A DNA stretch of 47,797 nucleotides from Deltaproteobacteria bacterium (GTDB lineage Bacteria > Desulfobacterota > DSM-4660 > Desulfatiglandales > HGW-15). The position numbers and the translations under genes were made by a program. The notes under the pieces are model-generated. The model was not told where the DNA came from. It worked only from the letters and a program-made list of their open reading frames with translations, and did no database searches. Positions within the stretch are counted from its first letter, which is position 1; each line of letters begins with the position of its first letter. Shown in pieces: positions 862 to 41,734 of this stretch. Location of the stretch: NCBI GenBank assembly GCA_016932115.1, contig JAFGDM010000081.1, positions 1-47,797 on the forward strand, read 5' to 3'.

Positions 862-1008
862 CTCTTTTCGGAAAAATAGTGTTTTGTCATTCTCAGCAGA
901 ATTTTGCCGGTTGACTTTGCCTTAAAAACAAGTTATGAGATCGCATATTATTGTTATAATAACTTTTTATCCACTGTTTCCGTCAGCTACAAGGAGTTGA
1001 AGGAGGAA

Positions 1009-2307
1009 ATGCCTATGGCAGATGAAGCGTTGGAGTTGAGCGAACTTAAAGGAGAATTCAGGAAGAAAGTCAATGAGCTTTTACCTGAGGGAAATCTGAA
1101 TCTCTGCTTCACCTGTGGTACCTGTGCCAGCGGTTGTCCGGCTACCGGACTCGAGAACATGGACCCAAGAAAATTTGTCAGGATGATAGCGCTGGGTCTT
1201 GATGATGAGGTAACGAGCACACCCTGGGTGTGGATGTGCAGCATGTGTCAGCGTTGTATCTATGCCTGCCCCATGAATGTTGATATCCCCCGGATGGTAT
1301 ACCTTGCTCGCCAGGCATGGCCGCGTGAGGAAAGGCCTAAAGGGATCCTCGGTTCATGCGATATGGCTCTCAGGAACGACAGTTGCAGCGCCATGGGAGC
1401 GTCGCCTGAGGATTTTCAGTTTGTTGTAGAAGACGTGGCGGAGGAAGTTAGAGAAAACCATCCCGGATTCGAGACGCTCCAGGCCCCGATAGACAAAGAG
1501 GGCGCTTATTTTTTTCTCAACCAGAATTCAAGAGAGCCGGTGACGGAGCCGGATGAAATGATCCCTCTGTGGAAGATTCTCCACCTTGCCGGAGCAGACT
1601 GGACCTATGGCTCCAAGGGGTGGGGCGGAGAAAACTACTGTATGTTTCTGGCTGATAGTGATGCCTGGGAACACATCGTTCGTACGAGCATAAAGCAGGC
1701 CGAAGATCTAGGGTGTAAGGTTTATCTCAATACCGAGTGAGGCCACGTGACCTTCGCAGTCCTGGAAGGACTGAAAAAATTTGGAATCAAGACCGACCTG
1801 GAAATTGCAAGCATTTATCAATACTATGCCAAATGGATCAGGGAGGGAAAATTAAAGGTTAATTCGGACTGGAACAAAGATCTAAAGATAAAATTCACGG
1901 TTCAGGATCCGTGTCAGATCGTCCGAAAAAGCTATGGTGACCCTGTAGCGGAAGATTTACGCTATGTTGTCAGATCCGTTGTCGGGGATGAAAATTTTAT
2001 TGATATGACACCTAACAGGTCCAACAATTATTGTTGTGGTGGTGGCGGTGGATATCTGCAATCCGGTTATGTTGAAGCACGTCATCAGTATGGGAAGGTC
2101 AAATTTGACCAGATCGTTGCTACAGGGGCCGATTATTGCGTTGCCGCATGCCATAACTGTCACGCCCAGATTCATGATCTGGCGGAGCATTTTGAAGGTA
2201 AATACCATACTGTCCACCTGTGGACTTTGATTTGCCTCGCCATGGGAGTTCTAGGTGAAAACGAGCGTACATATTTGGGTCCCGATCTGGCGGAGGTGGG
2301 GCTCTGA
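1009..2307 (+). CDS. HdrD/GlpC-like Fe-S oxidoreductase (ferredoxin domain plus two cysteine-rich CCG-type domains), read through in-frame UGA 1738-1740 as selenocysteine
   Basis: Track ORFs 904-1740 and 1747-2307 share one frame and are separated only by TGA-GGC-CAC. The N part has CFTCGTCASGCP and CSMCQRCIYACP. The C part has DPC...NNYCCGGGGGY. The likely start is ATG 1009 or 1015, after AGGAGG at 1001-1006. A hairpin begins 16 nt after the UGA. Confidence 0.75.
1757..1773 (+). promoter_or_regulatory. Putative bacterial SECIS hairpin for UGA 1738
   Basis: CAGTCC-TGGAA-GGACTG: 6-bp stem and 5-nt loop, starting 16 nt after the UGA. Confidence 0.55.
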
Positions 2308-2471: not shown

Positions 2472-3314
2472 TTAATACTCCGGCGGCATCCGCTTGAGCT
2501 GAGCCAAGGAAAAAACCGGCCCATCTTTGCACACATACTGATCTCCAATGTTGCACCGTCCGCAAATGCCGATTCCGCACTTCATGCGCATTTCCAGGGA
2601 TAGAATGATTTTCTCCGCGGGGAACCCCAGTTTTTCCAGCACGGGCTGGGTAAACTTGATCATGATCGGCGGCCCGCACACAATGGCAAAGGCGTCATCC
2701 GCGCTCTTGATTTTTTGCTCTGTAACCGTGGGGACGAACCCTACGTTGTATTTCCAGTTTGGATCATCGGTGGCGTCCACGGTGATGTGCATGTTGATGT
2801 CGTCGCGCTGTTCCCATGCTGCGAGTTCATCCTTGTATAAAAGCATGCCGGGGTTCCGGGCTCCATACACAACGGTTATATCCTTGAATCGCGGCCGGTT
2901 GTCCGGGTGGATCATATAGACAATGCTGGAGCGCAGGGTGGTGAAGGCAAAACCGCCCCCTATAATCACCACGTTTTTCCCTTCCATCTCCTCCCAGGGA
3001 TACCAATTTCCCAAGGGGCCGCGAATGCCCATCACCTCTCCCTCTTTCATGTTGTGGAGATAATTAGTTACCTGACCGACCTTATTCACCGTGAAGGTGA
3101 CAACCCCCCCCTCCGTAGGGGAAGAAGCAATACCGATGGGGATCTCGCCTTTTCCGGCAATGGAAAGCTCCGCAAACTGGCCCGGAATATAGGAAAACTT
3201 TTTTTCATCTTCCGGATCCAGAAAAACGAACCTGAAGGTTTTCAAATTTCGGTCTTCAGTCTCCGTGGTAATCTGATCGATACGAACAGGATAAGGCAAA
3301 TAAGGGTTGTGCAT
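2472..3314 (-). CDS. FAD/NAD(P)H-binding oxidoreductase with C-terminal [2Fe-2S] (FlxA / sulfhydrogenase gamma / AsrB / PyrK-like)
   Basis: 280 aa. The start resembles a ferredoxin-reductase-type barrel. There is a GGGFAF nucleotide-binding stretch and a C-terminal MKCGIGICGRCNIG...CKDGP cysteine cluster. Confidence 0.75.
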   Translation of the reverse strand: MHNPYLPYPVRIDQITTETEDRNLKTFRFVFLDPEDEKKFSYIPGQFAELSIAGKGEIPIGIASSPTEGGVVTFTVNKVGQVTNYLHNMKEGEVMGIRGPLGNWYPWEEMEGKNVVIIGGGFAFTTLRSSIVYMIHPDNRPRFKDITVVYGARNPGMLLYKDELAAWEQRDDINMHITVDATDDPNWKYNVGFVPTVTEQKIKSADDAFAIVCGPPIMIKFTQPVLEKLGFPAEKIILSLEMRMKCGIGICGRCNIGDQYVCKDGPVFSLAQLKRMPPEY

Positions 3315-3401
3315 GAAGCTAATACTCCTTTTTCAGGTTGGACTCTTGGAGGGAATCTTTTTTAGCCATTGCTTCCTCCAATGCTCCGCTGTTCCTCTTC
3401 T

Positions 3402-4439
3402 TCAATACCCGTTCATCAATCCAAACACTTCTCGAATATCGATATTAACGGGGCAGAACTGAACACATCGGCCGCAACCGACACATGCCACGCCGTTTTC
3501 GTACTTGTCCACGTAATATTTCAGCTTGTGCATGAAACGTTGTCTGACCCTTTGGAGTTTTTTGTCTCGGGGATTGTGACCTGATCCGTGAAGGGTGAAA
3601 ATCGGAAACATGCATGCGTCCCAGTTGCGTATCCTGTCTCCTTCTTTGCCGCAGGTTTCATCCTGGATGTCGAAACACCAACAGGTCGGGCAGAGGTAGG
3701 TGCAGGTTCCACAGTTGATGCAGGCAAAGGAGATCCTTTCCCAGAAGTGGGCGCTGAATAACTCATTCACGACCTTGTCTTTAAGACGATCGGTGGGTAC
3801 AGTGGAGGAAATTTTTTTCTCCGAGCCTTTGGCCAGCTCCTGCGCCTGCTTGAGGACGGTGCCGTCCGCTTTCTTTCCGCTTTTGAGCGCTCCCAGAAGA
3901 GCTTCGCCTTTGGTCGTGAGGCTCTTTACCAGAAAACGATCGCCCAGATCCACCATGAGCGCATCCAGCCCTTTCTCGCAGAATGGGCCGCTTCCAACGG
4001 ATGTGCAAAAGCAGGACGCGCAAGGCTCGTTGCAGCCAAAGCCGACAATTGTGGTCGCATTCATTCGCTGAATCCACCAGGGATCACGGTATTGGGGGTT
4101 GTCGAAATTGATGCGAACCAACTGGAAGGCAAGGGCGTCGCAGGGCCGGATTCCCACAATGGCCTGCGTTGAGAAATCTTTGGGTGTTTCCTTGATGATG
4201 TGGGCGTCTTCTTTGCTATCATCCAAAGAGTATTCGAACATCCGCTCCGATTGAGGGAAAATTATGCTTTTCGCAGAGAGCCTTGTGTTCTGGAAGTCGA
4301 AACTCGGTTTGGCGCCGTTTTTCAGCGGCCTGAAATTGTGGAAGTCCCCTTCTTTTACGGGTACAAAAACCTTATAAGCGCTTTGCAGCTCTTTAAGTGC
4401 CTCGGTCCATTCTTCCTTGGTAAATGATTTCTCAAGCAT
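3402..4439 (-). CDS. 4Fe-4S dicluster protein, FlxB / sulfhydrogenase beta / AsrA-like
   Basis: 345 aa with CINCGTCTYLCPTCWCFD and CVGCGRCVQFCPVNIDI motifs. Confidence 0.7.
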   Translation of the reverse strand: MLEKSFTKEEWTEALKELQSAYKVFVPVKEGDFHNFRPLKNGAKPSFDFQNTRLSAKSIIFPQSERMFEYSLDDSKEDAHIIKETPKDFSTQAIVGIRPCDALAFQLVRINFDNPQYRDPWWIQRMNATTIVGFGCNEPCASCFCTSVGSGPFCEKGLDALMVDLGDRFLVKSLTTKGEALLGALKSGKKADGTVLKQAQELAKGSEKKISSTVPTDRLKDKVVNELFSAHFWERISFACINCGTCTYLCPTCWCFDIQDETCGKEGDRIRNWDACMFPIFTLHGSGHNPRDKKLQRVRQRFMHKLKYYVDKYENGVACVGCGRCVQFCPVNIDIREVFGLMNGY

Positions 4440-4551
4440 AGTGCTTATCCTAATGACTTTTTGAGGACGCTAAAAACGACACACGGTACAGCCTGCTCAA
4501 CGGAAGTAGTCTCTGTTTCTAAGACCGAGCGGCATAAGACAGAGCACCGTG

Positions 4552-5502
4552 TCATTTTACAAACTCATTGTAATCGTCCACCCGGTAAACATCGAGGGGC
4601 GGCCGCTGATCGGCACGAACGCCCGCTTCCCACCCGAAGTACTCGAAGACATCCTTGTTGAGTTTCTTGGTGAACTGCCTCATCGGTATACCGACCGGGC
4701 AAACCCTTTCACAGGCACCACAGTCGGTGCATCGTCCCGCGCAGTGGTATGCTCGCAGGAAGTGGAAGGTCATGGTATCCACAGGATCAATGCTTTTTCC
4801 TACCCATTGGGGACGGGATTCATCCACAAAACAGGTGGGGCAGTAACAAAGGGGACAGGCGTTCCTGCATGCATAGCAGCGGATGCAGGATGCAATGAGC
4901 TGAGTGAAAAATTGACGTTTTTCATCAGCACTCTTTTTTTCAATACCCTCCACGTCCTTGAAGGGGTTGACCCCTTCCAATTCCGGCACCGGATCGGCGA
5001 CCATCTCGTCGTATTCCACCGGGTTGCGATGGACGCATACGGCGCAATTGGTTCTCAGGAAATCCTTTTTTTGGAAAACTTCCTGGAAACCCTTTCCGCT
5101 CACTGTGAATGATTCGCCTTCTTCTCCCACTTCCAGAATTTCCCGATTTCCCACGGCCCTTTTCACGGCCCGATGATCAATGATACCCCTGCAGGGTATC
5201 CCGACGATATAGAGCTGTTCTCGCTTGATCTGGTTTTCAATGATATGGGTCACGATGTTGCGGGAGTTGCAGCCGTTCGCCACGAGGCCGATACGGTCGG
5301 TGCGCCCGGTCAGGTAGTTACAAAGATTCAGCCCGCAATGGCTGTCCCAATGCAGAAAGTCCACTTCGGCTGGATCCTTAATCAGCACAGGCTCATTCAT
5401 CATGGCCACAGTGCCTTTCCTGTACCCGATAAAAACATCCACCGTGCCTTTTTCCAAAAGCTTTCGAGCGATCTCTCTGATTTTCCGGGTATATTCAAAC
5501 AT
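4552..5502 (-). CDS. Fe-S protein, FlxC-like (paralog of the 41759-42886 product)
   Basis: 316 aa with CIRCYACRNACPLCYCPTCF and CTDCGACERVCPVGIPM. Its start ATG overlaps the mvhD stop (TAATG at 5500-5504). Confidence 0.6.
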   Translation of the reverse strand: MFEYTRKIREIARKLLEKGTVDVFIGYRKGTVAMMNEPVLIKDPAEVDFLHWDSHCGLNLCNYLTGRTDRIGLVANGCNSRNIVTHIIENQIKREQLYIVGIPCRGIIDHRAVKRAVGNREILEVGEEGESFTVSGKGFQEVFQKKDFLRTNCAVCVHRNPVEYDEMVADPVPELEGVNPFKDVEGIEKKSADEKRQFFTQLIASCIRCYACRNACPLCYCPTCFVDESRPQWVGKSIDPVDTMTFHFLRAYHCAGRCTDCGACERVCPVGIPMRQFTKKLNKDVFEYFGWEAGVRADQRPPLDVYRVDDYNEFVK

Positions 5503-5939
5503 TACGCCACCTCAGCTCTTTTCTTGACAAGATAGGCCGCAGGCCCGGCGTCTTTGACCGAATGGAAGATTTCTGTCGCCACCTCCACGAATTTGGTAGC
5601 TTCAGCGGAGGAAATCCAGGAAAAATGAAGCCTTCCCGGCTCCAGTCCGATATGTTCCAGAAGGTTTTTGAGGAGAGCGAACTTGCGTCTTGCGTAATAA
5701 TTACCTTCCAGGTAATGGCAGTCTCCGGGGTGTCACCCGGAAACCCACACCCCGTCGGCACCGTGCCGGAAAGCGGCCAGGATGAGTTTGGGGCTTACCC
5801 GGGCGGAGCAGGGCACGCGAATGACACGGATATTGGAAGGGTACTGCAAACGGCTGACTCCGGCCAGGTCCGCCGCTCCGTAACTGCACCAGTTGCAAAG
5901 GAATGCGGTAATTTTCGGCTGCCAATCGTTCATGGGCAT
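5502..5939 (-). CDS. mvhD: MvhD/FlxD-type [2Fe-2S] protein, selenocysteine form (UGA at 5735-5733)
   Basis: Track ORF 5733-5939 ends ...[12 protein letters not shown]. Hand translation continues in frame as [44 protein letters not shown]... to TAA at 5504-5502. The Cys paralog at 41309 reads [28 protein letters not shown], which places the UGA exactly on a conserved Cys. Confidence 0.85.
5700..5716 (-). promoter_or_regulatory. Putative bacterial SECIS hairpin for UGA 5735-5733
   Basis: Minus strand ATTACC-TGGAA-GGTAAT: 6-bp stem and 5-nt loop, starting 16 nt after the UGA. Confidence 0.55.
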
Positions 5940-6029
5940 TCACTCCGTTTTATCGATTTCCGGTTTTCTATCTTGGAACCTCTCTTTTCCTATGAGCTTC
6001 CGCCACGAGCCTTAGGCCTTGAGGCGTTT

Positions 6030-9000
6030 TCACATTTCATTGATCATCGCCATGATCTGTCCTTCCTCAAAGCCTTTGAGGTTGAGAGCCCCGGAGCGGC
6101 AAGAAGAGACGCAAAGTCCGCAGCCCTTGCAAAGGACGGGGTTGATTTCCGCCTTTCCCGCAAAAGGGCCTTTTGGAATAAAAGACGGAGCGGAGTAAGG
6201 GCAGATCTCCACGCACACGCCGCAGCTACTGCAGACCGCCGGATTGGCGTAAGCAACCATGCCGCTTACGGAGATGTTCTTTCTGGCCAAAAGGGTGACG
6301 GCCCTGGAAGCGGCGGCTTGGGCCTGCGCCACCGACTCGTCGATGGGTTTCGGGTAGTGAGCCATTCCGCAAAGAAAAACGCCGTCCGTGGCAAACTGTG
6401 AGGGGCCTAGCTTCGCATGGGCTTCCACAAAGAATCCGTCCTCGCTCATGGGCACTTTGAAGAATTGGGCCAGTTTTTCGTCCTTGTAGGGAACGATGGC
6501 CGAAGCCAGGGTGAGCAGATCCGCCATGACTATGACAGGGCGCTGCAGCACATGATCCATCACCTCAATCTCGATGCCTTCCTTGCCGACTGTAACCCTC
6601 GGCTTTTGAGCACGGGAGAAGCGGATGAAAATGACGCCCGCTTCTCGCGCAGCTCTGTATAGGAGTTCGCGCTCCCCATAGGTGCGGATGTCCCGATTGA
6701 GAATGTACACGTCCATACCCGGGTTGATTTCCTTGAGATGGAGGGCGCTACCTATGGAGTGGGTGCAGCAGACCCTCGAACAGTAAGGCCTTTCCGGCTC
6801 CCGGGATCCCACGCACTGGATGAATACGGCACACTTGATGCGTTTAAGGGATGAATCTTGATCGATAAACTTGCGGTCCAGTTCCTGGTGCGTGAGGATC
6901 CGGGGATCTTTGCCGTAGAGATATTCCTCGGGTTTGTGTTCGTAGCATCCGGTAGCCAGCACCGCAATTCCGTGTTCGAGGGTCCCCTTTGTACCGCCGG
7001 CTTTAAAGGTGGATTTGAAGTTGCCCACAAAGCCCTCAACCTGCGTTAGCTCGGCGCCAAGATGGGTCTCGATATTTTTGTCACCCTGCACCGATGTAAC
7101 AAGGGTTTTCAGGTTTTCCTGGATATCTTCTCCCTGCCAGGTCTTATACAGGTTGATCGCTTGGCCTCCGAGAACCGGTTCGCGTTCGATAAGATCCACC
7201 TGGTAGCCCTGGTCGCTCAAGGTTTTTGCCGCGGCCATGCCGGATATGCCGCCGCCGATGACCAGGGCTCGCTGGTTGACGTCCAAGGCCGCTTCGGGAA
7301 GGCCTTCCATGAGGGCGACCTTGGCCGTTGCCATGCGCACCAGGTCTTTGGCCTTGACGGTTGCTTTCGAGGGACTTTCCTTATGGACCCACGAATCCTG
7401 GTTGCGGATGTTGGTCATTTCAAATAGATATTTGTTCAGCCCGGCGGCGACAAGGGTTTCCTGGAAAAGAGGCTCATGGGTCTTGGGCGTGCAGGCGGCC
7501 ACCACGATCCGGTTGAGGTTGTTGGCCTTGATCACTTGAGTCATGGCGTCCTGGGTATCCTGGGAGCAGGAGTAAAGGTTGTCCGCCACGTATTCTACAT
7601 AGGGCAAAGTCTTGGCATAGTCACGCACAGCCGGAACATCCACCACACTGCCTATGTTGATTCCACAATGGCACACAAAAACCCCGATCCGGGGTCTTTC
7701 TCCACGGGTGTCCTTTTGTTCGATCACTTCTTTCGTTTTGGTGAGCGTGTTTCTTGCGCTGCTCAGAAGGGCACCGGCCCGGGCGGCCGCAGAGCTCGCT
7801 TCGATAACCGACTGAGGAATGTCCTTGGGACCCTGAAAAGCGCCGCACACGTATATGCCTTCCTTGGATGTGGCCACAGGCGCAAAAGAGCCGGTGCGGC
7901 AAAAATGGGATTCCGTAAGGTCGATGCCGAGCTTTCCTGCCAGCTCCATAACCTCGGGGGAGCTTTCCAACCCGACGGAAAGGACGACCATGTCAAAGGT
8001 TTCTTTGTGAAGCGCACCGTCTTCCGTCGCATACCGGACGCTCAAATCCTCGGTTCCCGGAACCCCCTCGACTGTGTGCACACGGCACCGGATGAACCGA
8101 ACTCCGTGTTTTTCCCTGGCTGCGTCATAGTACCTTTCAAACTCCTTTCCGTGGGTCCGCATGTCCATGTAGAAGATGGCGCACTCCAGATCGGCTCCGG
8201 AATGCTCCTTGGCGATCACCGCTTCTTTGATGGCGTACATGCAGCACACGGAAGAACAGTAAGGGTGATCGGAGGGATGGATCTCCCTGGATCCCACGCA
8301 CTGGAGCCAGGCGATCTTCTTGGGCTCCTTGTGGTCCGACATCCGCGCCAGGTGTCCCATGGTCGGACCGGAAGCCGAAAGAATCCTTTCGAACTCCATG
8401 GATGTTACGACATTTGGAAGCCGGGCATAGTTGTATGTGTCATGCTTCGAGGGGTCGAAAGGCTGGAACCCGGGGGCCAGGATGATAGCGCCTACCTCAA
8501 GTTCGATGATCTCGTCCTTCTGTGTGTAATCGATGGCGCCCACCCCGCAAAACTCCGCGCAGATTTTGCACCCTCCTGTCTTGAAATGCATGCATTTGCT
8601 CCGGTCGATGGCCGGGATATTCGGGATAGCCTGCGCATAAGGGACGTAAATGGGCTTTCGGCCCTTCAGTCCCATATCGTACTCGGAAGGAATTTTCTTT
8701 ACAGCGTGCTTGCTGATGTCTTCCAGTTTGATGTGGCCTGTGGGGCAAACGGAAGCGCAGGCCCCGCAGCCCATACAGTATTCCGTCTGGATATGAAAAG
8801 GGGTGTCCACCTTCATTTCCGTGCCGCGGCCCGTCAGGCTTATGGCCGCATTGCCCATTTTCTCGCAGATCCGAGTGCACAGCCCGCAAAGAATGCAGTC
8901 GTCCTGTTCTTTCTTGAACCTTGGCTCTACGATCCCGTACTTTTTTGCAAGGTTTTTGAGAAGAGGGACATCAGGGCAACGGGCGAAGAGCAGTTCAACA

Positions 9001-9263
9001 ATCAGCTTGCGGCCTTTGCGGACGGCCTCAGAGTCGGTTTTGACCTCCATTCCTTCCCAAATGGGGTAGTTGCAGGCTGTCACAAAACGGGTCCGCCGCC
9101 CGTCAAAAAGCTCGACGGTGCAAAGGCGGCACATCCCGGCAGGCTCCAGGGCCTTGTGATAGCAAAGGGTCGGGATGTCGATCCCGTATTTCTGCGCAAC
9201 CTGCAGGATGTATTGGCCTTCTTCTCCCTGGACGGTCTTCCCATTCATCTTGAACGTAATCAT
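6030..9263 (-). CDS. Fusion protein: NuoG/HndD-type N-terminus ([2Fe-2S] plus 4Fe-4S motifs), then the C-terminal part of one HdrA FAD module, an HdrA N-terminal-type Cys domain, a second complete HdrA FAD module and a 2x[4Fe-4S] ferredoxin domain
   Basis: The real start is most likely MITFKMNGKTVQ at 9263. The track start at 9521 overlaps the nuoF-like gene. Motifs present: CYH...CRLC, CILCGLCTRIC, CMGCGACASVCP, KKIPSEYDMGLKGRKPIY, CVGSREIHPSDHPYCSSVCC, RIGVFVCHCGINIG...VVAACTPKTHE, VIGGGISGMAAA, CVGSREPERPYCSRVCC, CSSCGVCVEICP and CKGCGLCVSSC. Confidence 0.8.
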   Translation of the reverse strand: MITFKMNGKTVQGEEGQYILQVAQKYGIDIPTLCYHKALEPAGMCRLCTVELFDGRRTRFVTACNYPIWEGMEVKTDSEAVRKGRKLIVELLFARCPDVPLLKNLAKKYGIVEPRFKKEQDDCILCGLCTRICEKMGNAAISLTGRGTEMKVDTPFHIQTEYCMGCGACASVCPTGHIKLEDISKHAVKKIPSEYDMGLKGRKPIYVPYAQAIPNIPAIDRSKCMHFKTGGCKICAEFCGVGAIDYTQKDEIIELEVGAIILAPGFQPFDPSKHDTYNYARLPNVVTSMEFERILSASGPTMGHLARMSDHKEPKKIAWLQCVGSREIHPSDHPYCSSVCCMYAIKEAVIAKEHSGADLECAIFYMDMRTHGKEFERYYDAAREKHGVRFIRCRVHTVEGVPGTEDLSVRYATEDGALHKETFDMVVLSVGLESSPEVMELAGKLGIDLTESHFCRTGSFAPVATSKEGIYVCGAFQGPKDIPQSVIEASSAAARAGALLSSARNTLTKTKEVIEQKDTRGERPRIGVFVCHCGINIGSVVDVPAVRDYAKTLPYVEYVADNLYSCSQDTQDAMTQVIKANNLNRIVVAACTPKTHEPLFQETLVAAGLNKYLFEMTNIRNQDSWVHKESPSKATVKAKDLVRMATAKVALMEGLPEAALDVNQRALVIGGGISGMAAAKTLSDQGYQVDLIEREPVLGGQAINLYKTWQGEDIQENLKTLVTSVQGDKNIETHLGAELTQVEGFVGNFKSTFKAGGTKGTLEHGIAVLATGCYEHKPEEYLYGKDPRILTHQELDRKFIDQDSSLKRIKCAVFIQCVGSREPERPYCSRVCCTHSIGSALHLKEINPGMDVYILNRDIRTYGERELLYRAAREAGVIFIRFSRAQKPRVTVGKEGIEIEVMDHVLQRPVIVMADLLTLASAIVPYKDEKLAQFFKVPMSEDGFFVEAHAKLGPSQFATDGVFLCGMAHYPKPIDESVAQAQAAASRAVTLLARKNISVSGMVAYANPAVCSSCGVCVEICPYSAPSFIPKGPFAGKAEINPVLCKGCGLCVSSCRSGALNLKGFEEGQIMAMINEM

Positions 9264-9285
9264 GGGGCAAATCCTTTTCTCTTCC

Positions 9286-11187
9286 CTACTTAACCACAAT
9301 GGCGTCAAACTTACAGGTGTCGTAGCAAATCCCGCACTTGATGCATTTTTCCTGGTCCAGTGTGTGAAGTTTTTTCTTCTCGCCGGTGATGGCTTGCTGT
9401 GGGCACTTGAGGGCGCACACGTGACACCCGGTGCAAGCTTTTTCATCCACCTCGTAATGAAACAGGGGTTTGCAAACGCCTGCAGGGCATTTCTTATCGT
9501 AAATGTGGGCCTCGTACTCATCTCGGAAGTAGAGAATCGTGGTAAGCACCGGATTTGGCGCTGAGGTGCCCAGCCCGCACAGGGAGAACTTCTGAATCAT
9601 GCTTCCCATTTCTTCAAGAAGCTCAATGTCTCCTTCCTTCCCCCGGCCTTCGCAAATGTCCGTGAGCACATCGAGCATCTGCTTGATTCCCTCTCTGCAG
9701 GGGGTGCACTGGCCGCACGATTCTCCTTTGAGAAAATCCAGAAAGTAGCGGGCCAAATCCACCATGCAGGTGCCCTGATCCATCACGATCATGCCGCCGG
9801 ATCCCATCATGGAACCCACCTTGGTGAGCTCATCGTAACCCACCTGGAGATCCAGGAAGGCCTCAGGGATGCACCCTCCCGAAGGGCCTCCTGTCTGGAC
9901 GGCCTTGAATTTACGTTTCTTGGGAATTCCTCCTCCCATCTCAAAGATGATCTCGCGCAAGGTGGTTCCCATCGGTACTTCGACCAAGCCTGTATTCTTC
10001 ACCTTGCCCACCAGGCTGAAAACCTTTGTTCCTTTGCTGTACTTCGTTCCCATGCTGCTGAACCAGTCGGCTCCCTTGAGCATGATGACGGGGACATTGG
10101 CATAGGTTTCCACATTGTTGAGGTTGGAGGGGCCGTCCCTGAAGCCCTTTTCCACGGTGTGGACATACTTGGCTCTGGGCCTTCCGACATTTCCCTCGAG
10201 GGAGGCCATGAGGGCCGTAGACTCGCCGCAAACAAAGGCGCCTGCGCCGGTCGAAATCTTGACGTGGAAACCGAAATCCGACCCGGCGATGTTGTCCCCG
10301 AGAAGTCCAAAATCCTCCGCTTGCTTCAGGGCCGACACAAGGCGTTTAACGGCCAGAGGATATTCGTTGCGCACGTAAATGAAACCCTGAGAGGACCCAA
10401 TCGCATAAGCCGCGATAAGCATTCCCTCCAAAACACTGTGAGGGTCGCCCTCCAGAACACTCCTGTCCATGTAGGCGCCGGGATCTCCCTCATCGGCGTT
10501 GCAGATGACATAGCGCTCTCCCGGGTGTTTGCGACAGCTCTCCCATTTGATGCCGGTGGGGAAACCTCCCCCGCCCCTTCCCCTCAGACCGGACTTCTTA
10601 ATGGTCGCAATGATCTCCTCATGTTTCATCTCAGCGAGGATGCGGACAAAAGCGAAATACCCGCCTCGCCCGATATACTCTTCTATGCTGTCAGGATCGA
10701 TGTAACCACAATTGCGCAAAGCGATTTTGATCTGATGAGCGTAAAAAGGGATTTCATCCAGGAAAGGGATTCCCTTGATGGGATTTACCTTTTCAAGCGG
10801 GTTAGGCCGATCCTCTTCAATGACGGATCTGGGGTCGCGCATCTGACCGAGAATCAATTTTTTGCTGAATGTTTCTTCCATGTAATCCTGGAATACATCC
10901 GGTAGTTTGTCCTCTGTCACACGTTTGTAGACGACCCTCGGTTTACCCTTGGCCAAAATCTCCACCAGGGGTTCTTCTTCACAAAAACCGATGCAGCCGG
11001 TCTGGCGGATTTCAATGGAATCACCGGCGGGATGCTCCTTCAGCGCCCTTTCAAGCGTTGCCCTGGCCCCTGCAGCGATCCCGCAAGAGGCCATGCCCAC
11101 GTTGACCTTGACGCCCTGCGGAAAGGAGAGCTTCTCGTTGAATTCTTCGCTGATCTTCTCCAGATCCTTTACAGATAAAATTCTCAT
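9286..11187 (-). CDS. NuoF/HndC/HydB-like NADH-binding FMN flavoprotein with an N-terminal thioredoxin-like domain and a C-terminal 2x[4Fe-4S]
   Basis: 633 aa with GRGGGGFPTG, ESCGQCTPCREG, CTGCHVCALKCP and CIKCGICYDTC. Confidence 0.85.
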   Translation of the reverse strand: MRILSVKDLEKISEEFNEKLSFPQGVKVNVGMASCGIAAGARATLERALKEHPAGDSIEIRQTGCIGFCEEEPLVEILAKGKPRVVYKRVTEDKLPDVFQDYMEETFSKKLILGQMRDPRSVIEEDRPNPLEKVNPIKGIPFLDEIPFYAHQIKIALRNCGYIDPDSIEEYIGRGGYFAFVRILAEMKHEEIIATIKKSGLRGRGGGGFPTGIKWESCRKHPGERYVICNADEGDPGAYMDRSVLEGDPHSVLEGMLIAAYAIGSSQGFIYVRNEYPLAVKRLVSALKQAEDFGLLGDNIAGSDFGFHVKISTGAGAFVCGESTALMASLEGNVGRPRAKYVHTVEKGFRDGPSNLNNVETYANVPVIMLKGADWFSSMGTKYSKGTKVFSLVGKVKNTGLVEVPMGTTLREIIFEMGGGIPKKRKFKAVQTGGPSGGCIPEAFLDLQVGYDELTKVGSMMGSGGMIVMDQGTCMVDLARYFLDFLKGESCGQCTPCREGIKQMLDVLTDICEGRGKEGDIELLEEMGSMIQKFSLCGLGTSAPNPVLTTILYFRDEYEAHIYDKKCPAGVCKPLFHYEVDEKACTGCHVCALKCPQQAITGEKKKLHTLDQEKCIKCGICYDTCKFDAIVVK

Positions 11188-11208
11188 TTTTCTGCCTCTT
11201 CCGGGCTT

Positions 11209-11706
11209 CTATTCGTAACGCTCCAAGGTTTTCGCCACTTGATCCGGGGACAGGCGGGCATGAACATCCTCATTGATCTTGACCACGGGCCCAAGACTGC
11301 AGCAGCCGATGCAGCGCACGGATTCAAGCGTAAAGGAACCGTCCTCAGTGGTTTGGCCGTTCGAGATGTGCAGGAGCTGCTCAATCTGTTCTTGGACTCG
11401 TTTGGCGCCCCTCACGTGGCAGGCCGTTCCGAGACAAACGGTAATGAGGTTTCGGCCTCTCGGTTCCAAGCTGAAGGTGGCGTAAAATGTGGCGATTCCA
11501 TAGATCCGGCTTAAGGGAACGCCGGTTTTTTCAGCGAGGTAGGCGAGGGCGGGTCTCGGAATGTAGTTATACCGGCCCTGAATCCCCTGAAGCATCATGA
11601 TTAGGTTTTCCTTGTCGCTGCCGTATGTTTCCTCGATGATTTTATCCATCTCGACATAATCCAGTTCCTCGGGAGAAGGGGCAATCGCAACGGGTTCCTT
11701 GTTCAT
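11209..11706 (-). CDS. NuoE/HndA-like thioredoxin-fold [2Fe-2S] protein
   Basis: 165 aa with CLGTACHVRGA ... CIGCCSLGPVV. Confidence 0.85.
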   Translation of the reverse strand: MNKEPVAIAPSPEELDYVEMDKIIEETYGSDKENLIMMLQGIQGRYNYIPRPALAYLAEKTGVPLSRIYGIATFYATFSLEPRGRNLITVCLGTACHVRGAKRVQEQIEQLLHISNGQTTEDGSFTLESVRCIGCCSLGPVVKINEDVHARLSPDQVAKTLERYE

Positions 11707-11719
11707 AAAGACATCCTCT

Positions 11720-12136
11720 TCACTGAGCCTCGCCGGATGATCCTGTGCGTTCTACCGCACCGGCCTCATACAAGACGGGACAGTTCTCAATGCAAACACC
11801 GCATCCGGTACAAAGATCCATATTGATGCTCCGGGCCCTTTTTCTTATCTTCACTTTAAAATGTCCAGGGCTTCCTTCGACAGACTCAAGATCCGAATAG
11901 GTAATGAGTTCAATATTGAGATGCCGGCCGACCTCGACCAGTTTAGGGGAAATGATTCACATCGCACAGTCATTGGTGGGAAAAGTTTTATCCAATTGGG
12001 CCATAACCCCGCCAATGGCCGGGGATTTTTCCAGGAGATACACGTAATATCCGGAATCCGCCAGATCAAGGGCGGATTGCATCCCTGCGATGCCTCCACC
12101 CACAACAAGGACTGAACCTTTTATAGTGTTTGACAT
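11720..12136 (-). CDS. hdrA: HdrA N-terminal fragment (FAD-binding GGGIAG, DCAM-U motif, first CxxCxxCxxxCP), with selenocysteine at UGA 11959-11957. Not present in the ORF track.
   Basis: Hand translation from ATG 12136 (RBS GGAGAAATAAGG) gives [126 protein letters not shown]...Q, ending at TGA 11722-11720. It aligns by eye to both HdrA paralogs in this window. Confidence 0.75.
11924..11941 (-). promoter_or_regulatory. Putative bacterial SECIS hairpin for UGA 11959-11957
   Basis: Minus strand CTGGTCG-AGGT-CGGCCGG: 7-bp stem (two G-U pairs) and an AGGU loop, starting 15 nt after the UGA. Confidence 0.5.
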
Positions 12137-12455
12137 CCTTATTTCTCCTTTGTGTTCATCTTAACAGGTATCGCTTAGAGCTTTCTTATGGCAAGGCACT
12201 TGAAGTTGTCATCCGGATTGAGCCTTCTCGTGCATGATTCTCAGGCCCGAAGAAATTGGATCAGCTGATGCGTCGACAAATCGACATCCGTGATCGAGTA
12301 AGGGTCGGGCTTTACAAGGAAGGGGTTTGGGGATCTGTCCTTCCCTACGGAACCTGTATATCAATGGAATACAGTCGAGGGTAAAGATAGCCGTGGGAAG
12401 GCGAGTCTGTCAATGGTTTTTTGCTCATTCTGTGTGGGAAAGAATCAGGAAAGGG

Positions 12456-12489
12456 CTCTCCCAACCTCCGGATGCGGAAGCCGGGAGAG
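12456..12489 (-). terminator. GC-rich stem-loop just downstream of the dual-REC gene (possible weak terminator or attenuator)
   Basis: Minus strand CTCTCCCGG-CTTCCG-CATC-CGGAGG-TT-GGGAGAG, 10 nt after stop 12499-12501. Followed by CCCTTTCC rather than a clean U-tract. Confidence 0.3.
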
Positions 12490-12498
12490 GATGGGAAT

Positions 12499-13821
12499 CT
12501 ATGCAGCCAAACGAACCGCGTTTTCTGTTACCTTACGGATCTCATCAGGCGTGAAGGGCTTGGGGAGGTAATCGACTGCCCCCAACCTGGCGCTCTCTTT
12601 GGCTGTTTCGATGCTGGCATAGCCGGTGATGATGACAACGGGCGTCTGCGGGCTCTTTTTTCTAATAGTTTGGAGAAGTTCCAGCCCCTGCACGCCGGGT
12701 ATCCTGAGGTCGAGTAGCACCAGTCTGTAAGCTTTCTCCTGGATGCTCCGCAGCGCTTCTTCTTTGGTCATCGCCTGATCTACGGTGAAACCTTTTTTTG
12801 TCAGGATCTTGCGAATATTGTTGTTGACGGCCGCTTCGTCGTCGATAACCAGAATGTCTTGCCCGGTCACTTCGTCCCTTGTAAAGGGAATATCCACATC
12901 AATGATTCGCCTCCTTTCGGCTGCCATTGCGGGTGGAAGCACTCTACGAGGGGCCCTGAGAGGAAAAACGACATCCATGACTTGCCTTCTTTTAGCCAGC
13001 GCCATTTTTTCCTTGAGTTCCTCATAAGGCACAAAGACAACCCCGTCGCCTTGGAGGTGCATGAGGTATTCAGGGCCTGTGATTGAAGCGACCTCCTCAT
13101 AGCTGAAAGGCTGATCAATGCCGACAAGCTTCTTGGGGTCGAATGTTTTTTCGCCCCTGCTTTCTTCCTTGGCCCTCGCGGCATGTTTGGCTTGCGGGCA
13201 TTCGTTCGCCTTAAGGCCCGCCTTGCAGGTGGCGCCGAGTTTCTTGAAAATTTCGCAAACCTTATGCCCTACGGCGCAATAGTACTCGAGAGTTTCCGGC
13301 GAAGGCATCTCCACAACGGGCATGTCCGAGGGGCCCAGCGTATCTGCGTAGGCCTCGCCCGCGAATTCGGCTACCTCCTGCCGATCGAAAGGGATGTCGA
13401 GATCGATGACATCGATCGTCTTTTTCACCTTTTCGGATACCGGCATCTCTTGCAGCTCTCCGGACAAAACCTTGTCCACTGTCTCCCGTACTTCTTTGGG
13501 CGTGAAAGGCTTGGGAATATAATCCAGAGCGCCCAGCCGGATGGCTTTCATGGCCGTATCGGTAGAGGCATAAGCGGTCATGATGATTACCTTGGTCAGA
13601 GGCCACTGTTCTTTGACAAGCTTCAAGAGCTCGAGGCCGTTTTTACCGGGCATCAAAATGTCGGATATGAGCAGGGAATAGGACTCGTTCGCCATCAGTT
13701 CAAGGGCGTCTCTGGCGCTGAAGGCCTGAGTCACTTCATAATTTTCCTTGGTGAGTATCTTACGCACATTGTCACAAATTCCCTTTTCATCGTCGACTAC
13801 CAGAATCTTTTTTGTTTCCAT
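12499..13821 (-). CDS. Dual response-regulator receiver protein (REC, about 200-aa Cys-containing linker, REC) with no recognisable output domain
   Basis: 440 aa. REC1 is KKILVVDDE...DILMPGKNG...KPF. REC2 is ILVIDDE...LDLRIPGVQG...KPF. The linker carries C-X6-C-X9-C-X8-C and three D-x-PF-x3-EV repeats. AGGAGG RBS precedes ATG 13821. Confidence 0.8.
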   Translation of the reverse strand: METKKILVVDDEKGICDNVRKILTKENYEVTQAFSARDALELMANESYSLLISDILMPGKNGLELLKLVKEQWPLTKVIIMTAYASTDTAMKAIRLGALDYIPKPFTPKEVRETVDKVLSGELQEMPVSEKVKKTIDVIDLDIPFDRQEVAEFAGEAYADTLGPSDMPVVEMPSPETLEYYCAVGHKVCEIFKKLGATCKAGLKANECPQAKHAARAKEESRGEKTFDPKKLVGIDQPFSYEEVASITGPEYLMHLQGDGVVFVPYEELKEKMALAKRRQVMDVVFPLRAPRRVLPPAMAAERRRIIDVDIPFTRDEVTGQDILVIDDEAAVNNNIRKILTKKGFTVDQAMTKEEALRSIQEKAYRLVLLDLRIPGVQGLELLQTIRKKSPQTPVVIITGYASIETAKESARLGAVDYLPKPFTPDEIRKVTENAVRLAA

Positions 13822-13878: not shown

Positions 13879-13894
13879 AGCACATTGTGTGCCA
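13879..13894 (-). promoter_or_regulatory. sigma54-type (-24/-12) promoter upstream of the dual-REC gene
   Basis: Minus strand TGGCACACAATGTGCT, against consensus TGGCAC-N5-TTGC. GG and GC are at the correct spacing. Lies about 58 nt upstream of ATG 13821. Confidence 0.55.
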
Positions 13895-36218: not shown

Positions 36219-38180
36219 ATGGAAAACAGGATAGGCGTCTACGTCTGCCACTGCGGCACGAACATTGCGGGAAAGGTCGAGGTCGAAAAGGTTGCCGAAT
36301 ATGCCGGAAGCTTGCCCGGTGTGGTTATTTCAAGGGAGTACCGCTTCATGTGCTCGGACCCGGGGCAGGAGCAAATCCGGGAGGATATCGCAAAGCACCG
36401 TCTGAACCGGGTGGTCGTAGCGGCCTGTTCCCCTAGGATGCACGAAAAAACATTCCAAAAAACCCTCGAAAAGGCAGGCATCAACCGCTATTACCTTCAA
36501 GTCGCAAATATTCGAGAACACGTGTCCTGGACCACCGAAGACCCGGAGACAGCAACGAAAAAAGCCATGGATATGGTAAGGGCCGCGGTCGCAAGGGTAC
36601 CTTTGCACGGTCCTCTGCCCACCCACGAAGTGGCGGTAAACAAGGAGGTCATGGTGGTGGGGGCAGGCATCGGCGGGATTCAGGCAGCCCTGGATATTGC
36701 CGATGGGGGGTATAAGGTTCATCTTGTGGAGCGCCTGCCTTCCGTGGGGGGCCACATGTCTCAGTATGACAAGGTGTTTCCCACTCTGGATTGTGCGGCC
36801 TGTATCGGCACCCCGAAAATGGTTGCTGTGGGAATGCACGAACGCATCCAGCTTCATACTTACAGCGAGGTGGAAGAGGTTTCGGGGTTTGTCGGTCAAT
36901 TCAAGGTCAAGGTTCGCCATAAGGCGGCATATGTCAATCACGAGGTGTGCACGGGTTGCGGGATCTGCCAAGAAAAGTGCCCGAAAAAGGTACCTTCCGA
37001 ATACGATATGAAGTTGGGGAAGCGCAAGGCCATCTATACACTCTTCCCACAGGCTGTTCCCAACAAGCCGGTTATCGACCGCGACAATTGCATCTATTTT
37101 CAGAACGGAAAGTGCCGGGCCTGTGAGAAGTTCTGCGAGATGAAAGCGATCGATTTTGCGCAGCAAGACAGGGTGGAGGAGATCGAGGTGGGGTCTATCA
37201 TAGTGGCCACCGGTTTCGACCAGATGGACCCCAGCATCATCGAGCCCTATGGCTACGGTCGTTATCCGAACGTGATCACCGGTCTGGAATTCGAGCGTAT
37301 GGTGGTAGGCGCAGGCCCTACGCTGGGTAAAATCCAGCTTAAGGACGGATCTGTGCCCAAGGATGTGGCTATTTTGCACTGCGTGGGCAGCCGGGACTTG
37401 CGCTACCACGAATACTGCTCGCGCGTCTGCTGCATGTACGGCTTGAAACATGCCCATCAGATCCGGGAAAAGATCGGCGCCAACGTATACATGTTCTATA
37501 TTGACATGCGCTGTTTCGGCAAAGGATATGAAGAATTTTACAATCGTGTGCAAAACGAGGGCGTAATCCTGATTCGCGGCAAGGCGGCGCAGGTGACGGA
37601 TCAAGCCGTTCTGCCGGAAGACGAGGGGCGCCTCATTGTTACGGCTGAAGACACGGCCACGGGTGAAAAGGTCTACGTGCCGGTGGACATGGTCATTCTG
37701 TCCGCGGCCATGGAACCCCGGGTGGACGCACAGCAAACAGCGCGCATCTTTAACATCAACCGGAGCAAAGACGGCTTTTTCCTGGAGCAACACCCCAAGC
37801 TGGCTCCGGTTAACACGGCCGTTTCGGGGATCTTTTTGGCAGGGACATGCCAGGGGCCCAAAGATGTGGTCGACACGGTGGCTCATGCTGCGGCCGCTGC
37901 ATCCAAGAGCCTCGCCTTAGCCAGCAAGGGTGTGGTTGAGACAGAGTCCATGATCTCTTGGATCAATCCCGAGGTTTGCGTAGGGTGCCAGACCTGCATC
38001 TCAGTGTGCCCCGCGAACGCAATCACCTATAATGAACGCCGGGGAATTTCCTCGGTCAACGAGGCCGTATGTCTTGGTTGTGGCTCCTGTGCAGCCACCT
38101 GCCCGAGCGGTGCGGCCAGCCTCAAGCATTTCACGGCCGACGAGGTTCTGGCCGAAGTCGATGCCCTGATGGGAGCGTAA
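36219..38180 (+). CDS. hdrA: Heterodisulfide reductase subunit A (Cys form)
   Basis: 653 aa with RIGVYVCHCGTNIAG, VVGAGIGGIQAA, FPTLDCAACIGTPK, CTGCGICQEKCP, CVGSRDLRYHEYCSRVCC and a C-terminal 2x[4Fe-4S]. Confidence 0.9.
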   Translation: MENRIGVYVCHCGTNIAGKVEVEKVAEYAGSLPGVVISREYRFMCSDPGQEQIREDIAKHRLNRVVVAACSPRMHEKTFQKTLEKAGINRYYLQVANIREHVSWTTEDPETATKKAMDMVRAAVARVPLHGPLPTHEVAVNKEVMVVGAGIGGIQAALDIADGGYKVHLVERLPSVGGHMSQYDKVFPTLDCAACIGTPKMVAVGMHERIQLHTYSEVEEVSGFVGQFKVKVRHKAAYVNHEVCTGCGICQEKCPKKVPSEYDMKLGKRKAIYTLFPQAVPNKPVIDRDNCIYFQNGKCRACEKFCEMKAIDFAQQDRVEEIEVGSIIVATGFDQMDPSIIEPYGYGRYPNVITGLEFERMVVGAGPTLGKIQLKDGSVPKDVAILHCVGSRDLRYHEYCSRVCCMYGLKHAHQIREKIGANVYMFYIDMRCFGKGYEEFYNRVQNEGVILIRGKAAQVTDQAVLPEDEGRLIVTAEDTATGEKVYVPVDMVILSAAMEPRVDAQQTARIFNINRSKDGFFLEQHPKLAPVNTAVSGIFLAGTCQGPKDVVDTVAHAAAAASKSLALASKGVVETESMISWINPEVCVGCQTCISVCPANAITYNERRGISSVNEAVCLGCGSCAATCPSGAASLKHFTADEVLAEVDALMGA

Positions 38181-38183
38181 GAC

Positions 38184-41100: not shown

Positions 41101-41240
41101 TGGGCCACGCAGTTGTATATGCCGAACTGTGCCAGGCGTGCGGCGCCTGCGCAGCCATATGCCCCAACGATGCTGCCCAGTTGGTCGGCGGCACGGACAG
41201 GCAGATATTGTCGGTTATCGAGGCCCTGATGGAAGCCTGA
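38184..41240 (+). CDS. Tandem HdrA-like flavoprotein (two FAD modules, an internal HdrA-N-type Cys domain, ferredoxin domains); Cys form
   Basis: 1018 aa with VIGAGLSGL, TDSCGFCQILP, CTHCGRCIEVCP, CVGSREEKRNYCSSVCC, VFLCDCSG...VVGACTPRW, VVGGGPAGMSAA, CVGSRDKEHPYCSRICC, CSACGLCVEVCP and CQACGACAAICP. GTG start lies 3 nt after the hdrA TAA. Confidence 0.8.
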   Translation: MNSEDRAQDPQEMSTLDSDVLVIGAGLSGLTAAFDLVENGRTVLLVESAAAHGGYLTLLDRQFSTDSCGFCQILPRTPGGAEFCLKSMMYHPMIDFFPSTTVEGVEGKVGAFSVKLKRHATGVDAELCTHCGRCIEVCPEVYPDPLQAGMAGRKAIGSRAPVSSPSNIEIDWEHCTRCKACVDACPEGAIRLDAEDVAETRKVGAIIVATGFRLYDPSSKLEYGYGRFRDVVTTLELERLIGKSLLEGHEAIVRPSDGAPPSRIAWIQCVGSREEKRNYCSSVCCMISLKEARRCRQLLPDAHLEIFYMDLRTCGKGYESYLNEAKDMGIRFTRERPGEVLNRDGELLLQVEDQDGGWREQPFDLIILSIGFEAHPETLRLAQMLGISLDSDGFLSAHPGFLSRTEKEGVYMAGAASEPRDIPESVIQAHEAAALAASIAPATKQHGEGPTVPLTDLLDQDLRAMVFLCDCSGTLTERLGGEILRTSIEKEPGVVTVGLHSRLCHKEGLETLAKAIHETEANALVVGACTPRWLNQRLRQVSEETGLDPNLVQVVNLREQGAWSQGEASAEGAAAAEAQLRAALARCREYRILPRPVEGRDREAQVLVVGGGPAGMSAALSLSELGHAVTLVERESKLGGNLQWIHYGLGDNFEPEKILGDLLHAVQETPGVKVLTETTVADLRGRPGAYRAVLKGSEGQETDKEFGAVVVATGAVVNRPELFHYGKDTRILTQRDVETSLSENSLDPKSLLEVVMIQCVGSRDKEHPYCSRICCASALKNALKLLDGNPGLRVVIFYRDLRAFGLMERDYRKAREKGAIFVPFEPEAPPVVEIGEDGPTVTAYDPIAGLTICFHPDRIVLSTGFIPDAPSALLDRLGLAADPEGFLKEANPKFRPLDLCDGVYGCGTALGPAFLPEAMAQGRGAAVRASGFLRRMQRPAVLHTATVQASRCSACGLCVEVCPFHARELDEDLGHAVVYAELCQACGACAAICPNDAAQLVGGTDRQILSVIEALMEA

Positions 41241-41308: not shown

Positions 41309-41734
41309 ATGGAAGACTCGGAGAACTTCAAGATTGTCGCCTTTCTGTGTAACTGGTGCACCTACGCGGCTGCAGACCTGGCCGGTACCGGCCGCCTGAT
41401 CTATCCGCCGAACGTTCGAACCGTGCGGATTATGTGCTCCGGGTCGCTTGATCCCATGTACGTGGTTAAAGCTTTCCTGGAAGGGGCCGACGGAGTGCTC
41501 GTGGGAGGGTGCGCCCTCGGGGATTGCCATTACACGAGCGGAAATTATAAGGCTCGCCGCAAGGTAGCCGTTTTGCGGGAGGTTCTCGATGCGGTGGGCA
41601 TTGAAAAGGATCGATTATGGCTGCGCTGGATCAGCGCCAGTGAAAGCGGTTTGTTTTCCGAGACCATCCAACAAATGACAAAGGCCATCAAAGCCATGGG
41701 ACCGACTCTGGTGCAAGGCCGGATGATCCTTTAA
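41309..41734 (+). CDS. mvhD: MvhD/FlxD-type [2Fe-2S] protein (Cys form)
   Basis: 141 aa with FLCNWCTYAAADLAG and GGCALGDCHY. Confidence 0.85.
   Translation: MEDSENFKIVAFLCNWCTYAAADLAGTGRLIYPPNVRTVRIMCSGSLDPMYVVKAFLEGADGVLVGGCALGDCHYTSGNYKARRKVAVLREVLDAVGIEKDRLWLRWISASESGLFSETIQQMTKAIKAMGPTLVQGRMIL

Follow-up and report, generated by a model that had tools for sequence, protein, structure and literature searches.

A UGA-containing gene for the small part of a split HdrA-type flavoprotein, a probable selenoprotein encoded with NuoE- and NuoF-like proteins

The UGA-containing gene and its protein

We analyzed contig JAFGDM010000081.1 of assembly GCA_016932115.1 as one window of 47,797 nt and focused on a minus-strand frame at 12136..11720, which encodes a 138-residue protein related to HdrA and carries one in-frame UGA. 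Translation of the minus strand opens at ATG 12136-12134, runs through 59 codons to TGA 11959-11957, continues for 78 more codons and ends at the TGA stop 11722-11720. The internal UGA, codon 60, would be recoded to selenocysteine (Sec) by a selenocysteine insertion sequence (SECIS), a hairpin 15 nt downstream of the codon. The gene and the features within and before it are listed here, with the basis of each in brackets.

11720..12136, minus: coding sequence of the small HdrA protein, a predicted selenoprotein of 138 residues corresponding to about HdrA 141-258 (translation, phmmer against PDB)
12145..12148, minus: Shine-Dalgarno sequence GGAG, 8 nt upstream of the ATG (sequence reading)
12083..12100, minus: GGGIAG, residues 13-18, the dinucleotide-binding GxGxxG motif for flavin adenine dinucleotide (FAD) (Pfam Rossmann matches)
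11966..11968, minus: TGT codon of Cys57, the putative partner of Sec60 in D-C-x-x-U (homologous to the BamE Cys59-Cys62 pair)
11957..11959, minus: UGA codon 60, read as Sec; DCAMU at residues 56-60 (aligned to HdrA Cys197)
11924..11941, minus: putative SECIS hairpin CUGGUCG-AGGU-CGGCCGG, +19..+36 from the U of the UGA, with its loop at 11931-11934 (fold and comparative constraint)
11780..11812, minus: first CxxCxxCxxxC motif of the HdrA inserted ferredoxin domain, Cys109/112/115/119 (Pfam Fer4; invariant in the family)

This gene is easily missed by ordinary open reading frame (ORF) calling. With the default cut-off of 60 aa, neither half of the frame was reported, and two wrong-frame ORFs were listed in its place, at 11851..12108 on the minus strand and 11861..12115 on the plus strand. 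Lowering the cut-off to 40 aa recovered both halves, at 11957..12136 (59 aa) and 11720..11854 (44 aa, from an internal GTG). A preliminary description of this DNA had given the frame with its start, ribosome-binding site, coordinates and peptide strings, and had stated that the six-frame track misses both halves in favor of two wrong-frame ORFs; all of these match the sequence, and the omission was reproduced at the default cut-off. The hairpin with an AGGU loop that it had placed at +19 to +36 is likewise present (11941-11924).

To identify the protein, we carried out searches with the UGA written as Cys. With phmmer against PDB, residues 7-121 matched the solved HdrA 8rvv_A (E 6.6e-48), and residues 9-121 matched residues 146-258 of 5odc_A without gaps (E 3.6e-44); identity to the methanogen HdrA structures was 60-70% across about 115 residues. 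Because the match to HdrA residues 141-258 or so contains no gaps, codon 60 corresponds to HdrA Cys197. The UGA also aligned to the second Cys of the DCxxC motif in both HdrA paralogs of the window, DCAAC in the gene at 36219 and SCGFC in the gene at 38184. The preliminary description had proposed this position from the paralogs, and the proposal holds for both of them as well as for Cys197 in the formal alignment to solved HdrA.

Pfam placed the start of an FAD/NAD Rossmann fold at residues 8-47 and a Fer4 match at residues 104-121. The small protein contains the start of the thioredoxin-reductase (TrxR)-like FAD domain, with the GxGxxG and D-C-x-x-C features of HdrA, and the first Cys motif of the inserted ferredoxin domain. 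It does not have the complete one-chain architecture of HdrA: only about 115 HdrA residues are represented, and the NCBIfam HdrA2 model scored 160.7 bits against a cut-off of 1100. The gene had been described as an HdrA N-terminal module. The kinship with HdrA was borne out, but the protein is not the structural N-terminal domain, since the cluster domain (HdrA 1-133) is absent and the match lies at about 141-258, and it is not free-standing, since the other half of the HdrA is encoded in 6030..9263.

Codon 60 and the downstream hairpin in relatives

To see which residue occupies the Sec site in relatives, we searched a protein database, which gave 7856 matches at E<=1e-10, and analyzed the best 120 of these. 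All 120 were short (116 of 120-154 aa and four of 168-205 aa) and were 71-87% identical to the window protein. The residue at the Sec site was Cys in 94, 'W' in 25 and Arg in one. In the DNA of one 'W' protein (protein P0008, locus L001) the codon was TGA, and in a Cys ortholog (L002) it was TGT. We then surveyed codons with one genome per species, covering 79 loci with 103 HdrA-like genes that contain the motif, or 104 with the window gene. The aligned codon was TGA in 56 genes, including that of the window, and TGC or TGT in the other 48; none had TGG. The orthologs carry either TGA or a Cys codon at this site, with no scattered stops, and this codon pattern together with the Cys197 alignment supports the selenoprotein reading given in the preliminary description. 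The nearest relatives of the window gene, at 84-88% protein identity, were from uncultured deltaproteobacterial and Desulfatiglandales metagenome-assembled genomes (MAGs).

Two observations on individual relatives belong here. The 25 'W' residues occurred in proteins among P0001-P0106, and L001 shows a TGA that the gene caller had read under an alternative code; if the other cases are the same, selenoproteins are systematically mistranslated in metagenome protein sets. At L003, the Sec site (472-474) is AGA (Arg) and the exact 18-nt sequence of the hairpin is kept; this copy may be dead or recently mutated, or the codon may be a sequencing error.

Across the 61 codons past the UGA, comparison with six Sec-type orthologs gave 22-34 synonymous and 4-16 non-synonymous codon differences, and the pattern upstream of the UGA was similar. 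The codons after the UGA thus appear to be under purifying selection in the same frame. TGA is the ordinary stop of 12 of the 27 window genes, and therefore the genetic code is standard.

Bacterial SECIS elements are stem-loops close after the UGA, whose apical loop contains G/U and lies some 16-37 nt from it. The hairpin here folds into a 7-bp stem with an AGGU loop that begins 22 nt past the UGA, at -10.2 kcal/mol. Of the 56 TGA genes, 51 have exactly CTGGTCGAGGTCGGCCGG as the 18-nt stretch at +19..+36, a sequence that occurs in none of the 48 Cys genes. The peptide LVEVGR is also encoded by eight Cys genes, which spell it with seven different 18-mers. Third-position entropy over the six hairpin codons was 0-0.44 bit in the UGA genes versus 1.3-1.85 bit in the Cys genes, whereas the third positions of flanking codons had 1-2 bits in both groups. 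An 18-mer kept in nearly all UGA genes and absent from the Cys genes has the signature of a SECIS. The position of the hairpin and the comparative data agree with the bacterial pattern, which the energy alone would not establish.

A different sequence was found at this place in three genes of a Sec-HdrA class of about 510 aa (L032 16535, L033 13758 and L068 13835; DCAI-U-IL), in which ATGCTGGATGTCGGTCGRC stands in place of the common 18-mer, so the HdrA family may have a second variant of the SECIS.

The Sec/Cys codon pattern recurs in two further window genes, mvhD and an HdrD/GlpC-like gene, and we counted both in support of read-through. For mvhD, related loci had TGA in 28 cases and TGC or TGT in 44; this gene too is off the ORF list, both of its halves being shorter than 80 aa. 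The HdrD/GlpC-like codon was TGA in four loci (L033, L053, L054 and L072) and TGC in five (L013, L031, L036, L044 and L082). In the window this gene lies at about 1012-2307 on the plus strand, where ORFs 904..1740 (HdrC-like Fe-S) and 1747..2307 (CCG domain) share a frame and are parted only by TGA 1738-1740 (NTE-U-GH). From this arrangement, the two ORFs appear to be one gene, the third selenoprotein of the window, belonging to the HdrD/GlpC family.

If the UGA at codon 60 were a plain stop, the gene would yield a 59-residue peptide, and the 78 downstream codons would be translated separately or never. UGA is the commonest ordinary stop in the window and standard gene callers cut the gene there, but we regard this explanation as very improbable. 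The second half has no ATG or good early start with a ribosome-binding site, its first start being a GTG at codon 95, and its codons are conserved as protein in the same frame. Moreover, the Cys orthologs read straight through, and only the UGA genes have the invariant hairpin at SECIS distance.

The operon, the large protein and conservation of the split

The small HdrA gene is the first of a minus-strand operon that reaches 2472, and a gene for a large HdrA-containing protein lies three genes downstream. The other members of the operon are as follows.

11209..11706, minus: NuoE/BfuC-like thioredoxin-like [2Fe-2S] protein, 165 aa (Pfam 2Fe-2S_thioredx, E 3.6e-48; NCBIfam NuoE/HoxE)
9286..11187, minus: NuoF/BfuB-like subunit for flavin mononucleotide and NAD(H), 633 aa, with C-terminal 2x[4Fe-4S] (Pfam Complex1_51K, SLBB, NADH_4Fe-4S and two Fer4)
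6030..9263, minus: large fusion protein NuoG-like::HdrA::HdrA, 1077 aa (phmmer against PDB, three stretches to 5odc_A; blastp collinearity)
5502..5939, minus: mvhD (FlpD), 145 residues, predicted selenoprotein with TGA 5735-5733 in VWVSG-U-HPGDCHY (Pfam FlpD, E 3.7e-53)
2472..5502, minus: three distal genes for a 316-aa Fe-S protein, a 345-aa AsrA/ShyB-like Fe-S protein and a 280-aa AsrB/ShyC-like FAD/NAD(P)-binding protein (Pfam, NCBIfam)

The large protein begins with a NuoG-like N-terminus carrying [2Fe-2S] and 2x[4Fe-4S] sites (residues 1-180). Residues 156-516 or so correspond to HdrA 240-516, the remainder of a first HdrA module including CCMYAIK, and residues 521-1073 form another copy of HdrA (HdrA 2-232 and 503-646), in which the N-terminal cluster domain is retained and DCxxC is missing. 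As an unsplit reference for the small and large proteins we used the 1018-aa double HdrA of a second Hdr cluster in the window. By blastp, small-protein residues 3-123 aligned with its residues 14-142, and large-protein residues 158-1077 with its residues 123-1015. Together, the two proteins would thus amount to a BamE-like fused HdrA dimer. This complementarity makes the small gene one half of an HdrA that is cut in the middle of the inserted ferredoxin domain, with the nuoE- and nuoF-like genes between the halves.

The distribution of motifs between the two proteins follows the same division. The single GxGxxG of the large protein is at residue 670 and belongs to the second module, so that the first is without an FAD dinucleotide fold of its own; only the small protein supplies one. 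In BamE, a Lys near flavin N5, Lys280, marks the bifurcating FAD (bioRxiv 10.64898/2026.04.10.717634). This marker is outside the small polypeptide and sits in the partner large protein: CCMYAIK at residue 340 of the first module aligns with Lys409 (5odc numbering), and the second module has CCTHSIG. Among the Cys motifs of the large protein, those at 123 and 163 form a pair in the NuoG-like part and those at 1011 and 1045 a pair in the C-terminal ferredoxin, leaving an orphan C-x8-C-x2-C-x3-C at 224. The likely partner of the orphan is the Cys109-119 motif of the small protein.

The order small-nuoE-nuoF-large was found elsewhere in Desulfobacterota (L002 and L004-L006, with L007 and L010 stopping early at a contig edge). 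It was also present in an Eubacteriales MAG (L016), Spirochaetes (L020 and L034), Dehalococcoidia (L069), an uncultured archaeon (L029) and Altiarchaeales (L066). In five of these loci (L016, L020, L029, L034 and L066) the small HdrA has Cys in every case and forms a single in-frame protein of 293-309 aa with NuoE; the match lies at about 10001-10900 in most of them, and nuoF-like and NuoG::HdrA genes follow as in the window. The in-frame fusions indicate that the partners work together physically. At L002, the distal operon genes also follow in the same order, and then dsrC. On this comparative record, the split HdrA is a conserved arrangement found across phyla and not a product of decay.

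A decaying gene is the other explanation that has to be considered at this point: a full-length hdrA would have been broken by rearrangement, with the UGA as the true stop of a pseudogene remnant. The product is indeed only about one-sixth of a canonical HdrA and far under the family cut-offs (160.7 vs 1100 bits), and two complete hdrA paralogs in the window could make the small gene redundant. Against this stand more than 100 homologs of equal short length, a gene order kept across phyla and the in-frame NuoE fusions of five lineages. In addition, synonymous changes far exceed non-synonymous ones on either side of the UGA, no other stops or frameshifts interrupt the frame, and the large protein has no FAD-binding motif for its first module other than that provided by the small gene. 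We therefore consider decay very improbable, slightly more so than a plain stop.

That the UGA encodes Trp or Gly under an alternative code (table 4 or 25), as the 'W' in 25 of the 120 best database homologs might suggest, is the least credible explanation of all, because the 'W' protein that was checked (L001) has TGA and not TGG, TGG is absent from all 104 related genes, homologs without TGA carry Cys (one Arg) and never a sense codon for Trp or Gly, TGA ends 12 of the 27 window genes including the small HdrA gene itself, and the relatives are Desulfobacterota, which are not known to use either table.

As for the surroundings of the operon, no match to a sigma-54 promoter was found upstream of the small HdrA gene (minus strand, 12137-12498). 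A site one mismatch from the sigma-54 -24/-12 consensus, TGGCACACAATGTGCT, lies at 13879-13894 on the minus strand; matches across the window were at the level of chance (19 vs 23.6 expected). Ahead of the operon lies a gene for a double-receiver response regulator (13821..12499), and the site is about 58 nt upstream of that gene. Just upstream there are also genes for a sigma-54 activator and a PAS histidine kinase, and the same regulators flank the operon of L002.

The second Hdr cluster, at 36219-41240 on the plus strand, has Cys throughout and comprises a complete 653-aa HdrA (DCAAC) and the 1018-aa BamE-like double HdrA (SCGFC). A 141-aa ORF at 41309-41734 (plus) in this cluster is probably MvhD.

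Proposed function and relation to known systems

We interpret 12136..11720 as an expressed selenoprotein gene encoding the small subunit of a split flavoprotein of the HdrA type in a predicted bifurcating or confurcating complex, and we put the probability of this interpretation at about 0.88. Several points weigh against it. The hairpin energy is no better than that of shuffled sequences (z = -0.58; 56 of 200 shuffles fold as well). No Rfam SECIS family matched: a search of the whole window at the gathering threshold gave tRNA only, and a search of the locus at E<=10 gave one chance match to a small nucleolar RNA. Because the folding energy is not significant and Rfam gave no match, the SECIS claim rests on the synonymous-site constraint; and since the hairpin is invariant, it has no compensatory base changes, so covariation gives no proof of pairing. 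The 47.8-kb window contains no selA, selB, selC or selD, and ARAGORN reported only a tRNA-Leu. The AGA of L003 means that either this copy is defective or some copies can do without the residue. Finally, the large-protein motif at residue 163 also aligns to the first ferredoxin motif of HdrA, so that the pairing of Cys motifs between the two proteins is one that we infer, as we do their assembly, from collinearity and gene fusions.

If the interpretation is correct, the small subunit would contribute three elements: the Rossmann beta-alpha-beta with GxGxxG, binding the ADP part of FAD; the Cys57-x-x-Sec60 redox pair beside the FAD; and the first Cys motif of the inserted 2x[4Fe-4S] ferredoxin domain, which has two. 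The large subunit would provide the remaining TrxR-like domain, the bifurcation Lys of CCMYAIK and the second ferredoxin motif, with the NuoG-like domain ahead of them and a non-bifurcating HdrA module after. By docking on the large subunit, the small one would complete both the FAD domain and the inserted ferredoxin domain. The two, together with the NuoE-like and NuoF-like proteins and Sec-MvhD, may form a soluble bifurcating or confurcating complex linked to NAD(H) and ferredoxin, in which the NuoEF-like core would couple NAD(H) and ferredoxin to a further acceptor. Given the distal AsrA/ShyB-like and AsrB/ShyC-like proteins, there may be a second site, for NAD(P)H.

The role proposed for Sec60 draws on homologous residues in solved complexes. 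In M. maripaludis HdrA the residue is Sec197, and the Cys-Sec197 pair lies between cluster A3 and FAD, with a role called unresolved in a 2026 cryo-electron microscopy study (PMC13518236). Cys197 of one HdrA protomer is a ligand to the N-terminal [4Fe-4S] cluster of the other protomer, and in tandem or fused HdrAs the feature 'Cys197' and the feature 'N-terminal domain' are shared out between the halves (PMC9012536). In BamE, a subunit of class II benzoyl-CoA reductase, the equivalent residues, Cys59 and Cys62, are joined by a disulfide in one of the conformational states (bioRxiv 10.64898/2026.04.10.717634). Because Sec60 is homologous to Cys/Sec197 of methanogen HdrA and to Cys62 of BamE, we propose that it alternates between contact with the [4Fe-4S] cluster of the second module's N-terminal domain and a selenenylsulfide with Cys57. 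Such Cys57/Sec60 switching would gate the low-potential electron path.

The closest known systems each share part of this arrangement. The methanogen Sec-HdrA (M. maripaludis HdrA-U, PDB 8rvu/8rvv, with 5odc as the Cys form) has the same fold segment and a flavin-proximal D-C-x-x-(C/U) motif with Sec at the second position. It is a single chain of about 650 residues with N-terminal cluster and C-terminal ferredoxin domains, whereas the protein here is a separate 15-kDa polypeptide; in addition, the archaeal SECIS is in the 3' untranslated region, whereas that of the window gene would be a bacterial in-frame element.

In bacteria, HdrA and MvhD (FrhD) have been known as selenoprotein families since 2006, and Deltaproteobacteria are particularly rich in them (Zhang et al. 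2006, PMC1794560). That work already noted hdrA genes in duplicated and split form (hdrA_N-unknown-hdrA_C), and Desulfobacterium autotrophicum HRM2 has several Sec-HdrA/HdrL and Sec-MvhD genes (PMC2702500). The deltaproteobacterial Sec-HdrA and Sec-MvhD proteins share with those of the window their family, a host range at the phylum level and co-occurrence with Sec-GlpC/HdrD. The described cases are long HdrA, HdrL or double-HdrA genes, unlike the split small gene here. A literature search, with one relevant review outside its reach, found no description of a split with nuoE- and nuoF-like genes between the halves together with a NuoG-like fusion.

The BamE/BamF/BamGHI system of Geobacter metallireducens is similar in having a fused HdrA dimer that opens with a TrxR domain, CxxC at 59/62, a Sec-containing MvhD-like adaptor and a NuoEFG-like (Bfu/HydBC-type) module. 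The small and large proteins are collinear with a double HdrA of this type and have CxxC near residue 60, in a comparison made with the window's 1018-aa paralog and not with BamE itself. BamE is a single chain, with BamI apart from it; in the operon here, a BamI-like domain is fused into the middle of a BamE-like protein that is split. The HdrA part of the window operon carries Sec at the site where BamE has Cys, and the MvhD Sec is at residue 69 instead of residue 19 as in the Bam system. Class II benzoyl-CoA reductase itself was considered as an identity and rejected, as the operon has no BamB, BamC or BamD. The operon genes (2472..12136) gave no Pfam or NCBIfam matches to AOR or CCG domains, and an HdrD-like gene lies next door on the opposite strand.

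The operon also resembles the BfuABC family (HydABC, NfnABC; Schut et al. 2022, PMC9304861), with a NuoE-like C, a NuoF-like B with C-terminal 2x[4Fe-4S], and an A whose NuoG-like N-terminus carries a variable catalytic part; its Pfam and NCBIfam domain content agrees with this composition. Catalogued modules for the third reaction of Bfu enzymes are FeFe, NiFe, Fdh, Nfn, Wor, Por, Codh, F420, Rub, Bam, Mbh and Nuo (PMC9304861). This catalogue holds no BfuA fused directly to HdrA modules, and text searches found no such class. The operon may represent an undescribed enzyme class, 'Hdr-Bfu', in which an NAD(H)/ferredoxin BfuBC core goes with an A subunit joined to a BamE-like double HdrA and the bifurcating flavin domain is physically split; the FAD fold and the Cys-x-x-Sec redox switch would be on a 15-kDa selenoprotein that is fused to BfuC in some lineages. 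We offer this tentatively and consider it less likely than not.

The selenoprotein itself belongs to the already known Sec-HdrA family and is of modest novelty, and the split Hdr-Bfu-like architecture is a reasonable lead. For annotation, the finding means that three selenoprotein genes of the window are split or dropped by ordinary ORF calling, and that public protein sets contain relatives that are truncated or mistranslated with Trp. A small separate subunit with a redox pair and an FAD fold would lend itself to reconstitution and to experiments on Sec/Cys exchange. If the proposal holds, 'Hdr-Bfu' would be a second, widespread enzyme type that joins two different bifurcation modules, after class II benzoyl-CoA reductase, and a natural system with a proposed selenenylsulfide gate on a detachable subunit. 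The conserved small-nuoE-nuoF-large-mvhD operon, present in some archaeal MAGs as well as several phyla of bacteria, suggests that anaerobes have an NAD(H)-linked HdrA complex yet to be characterised.

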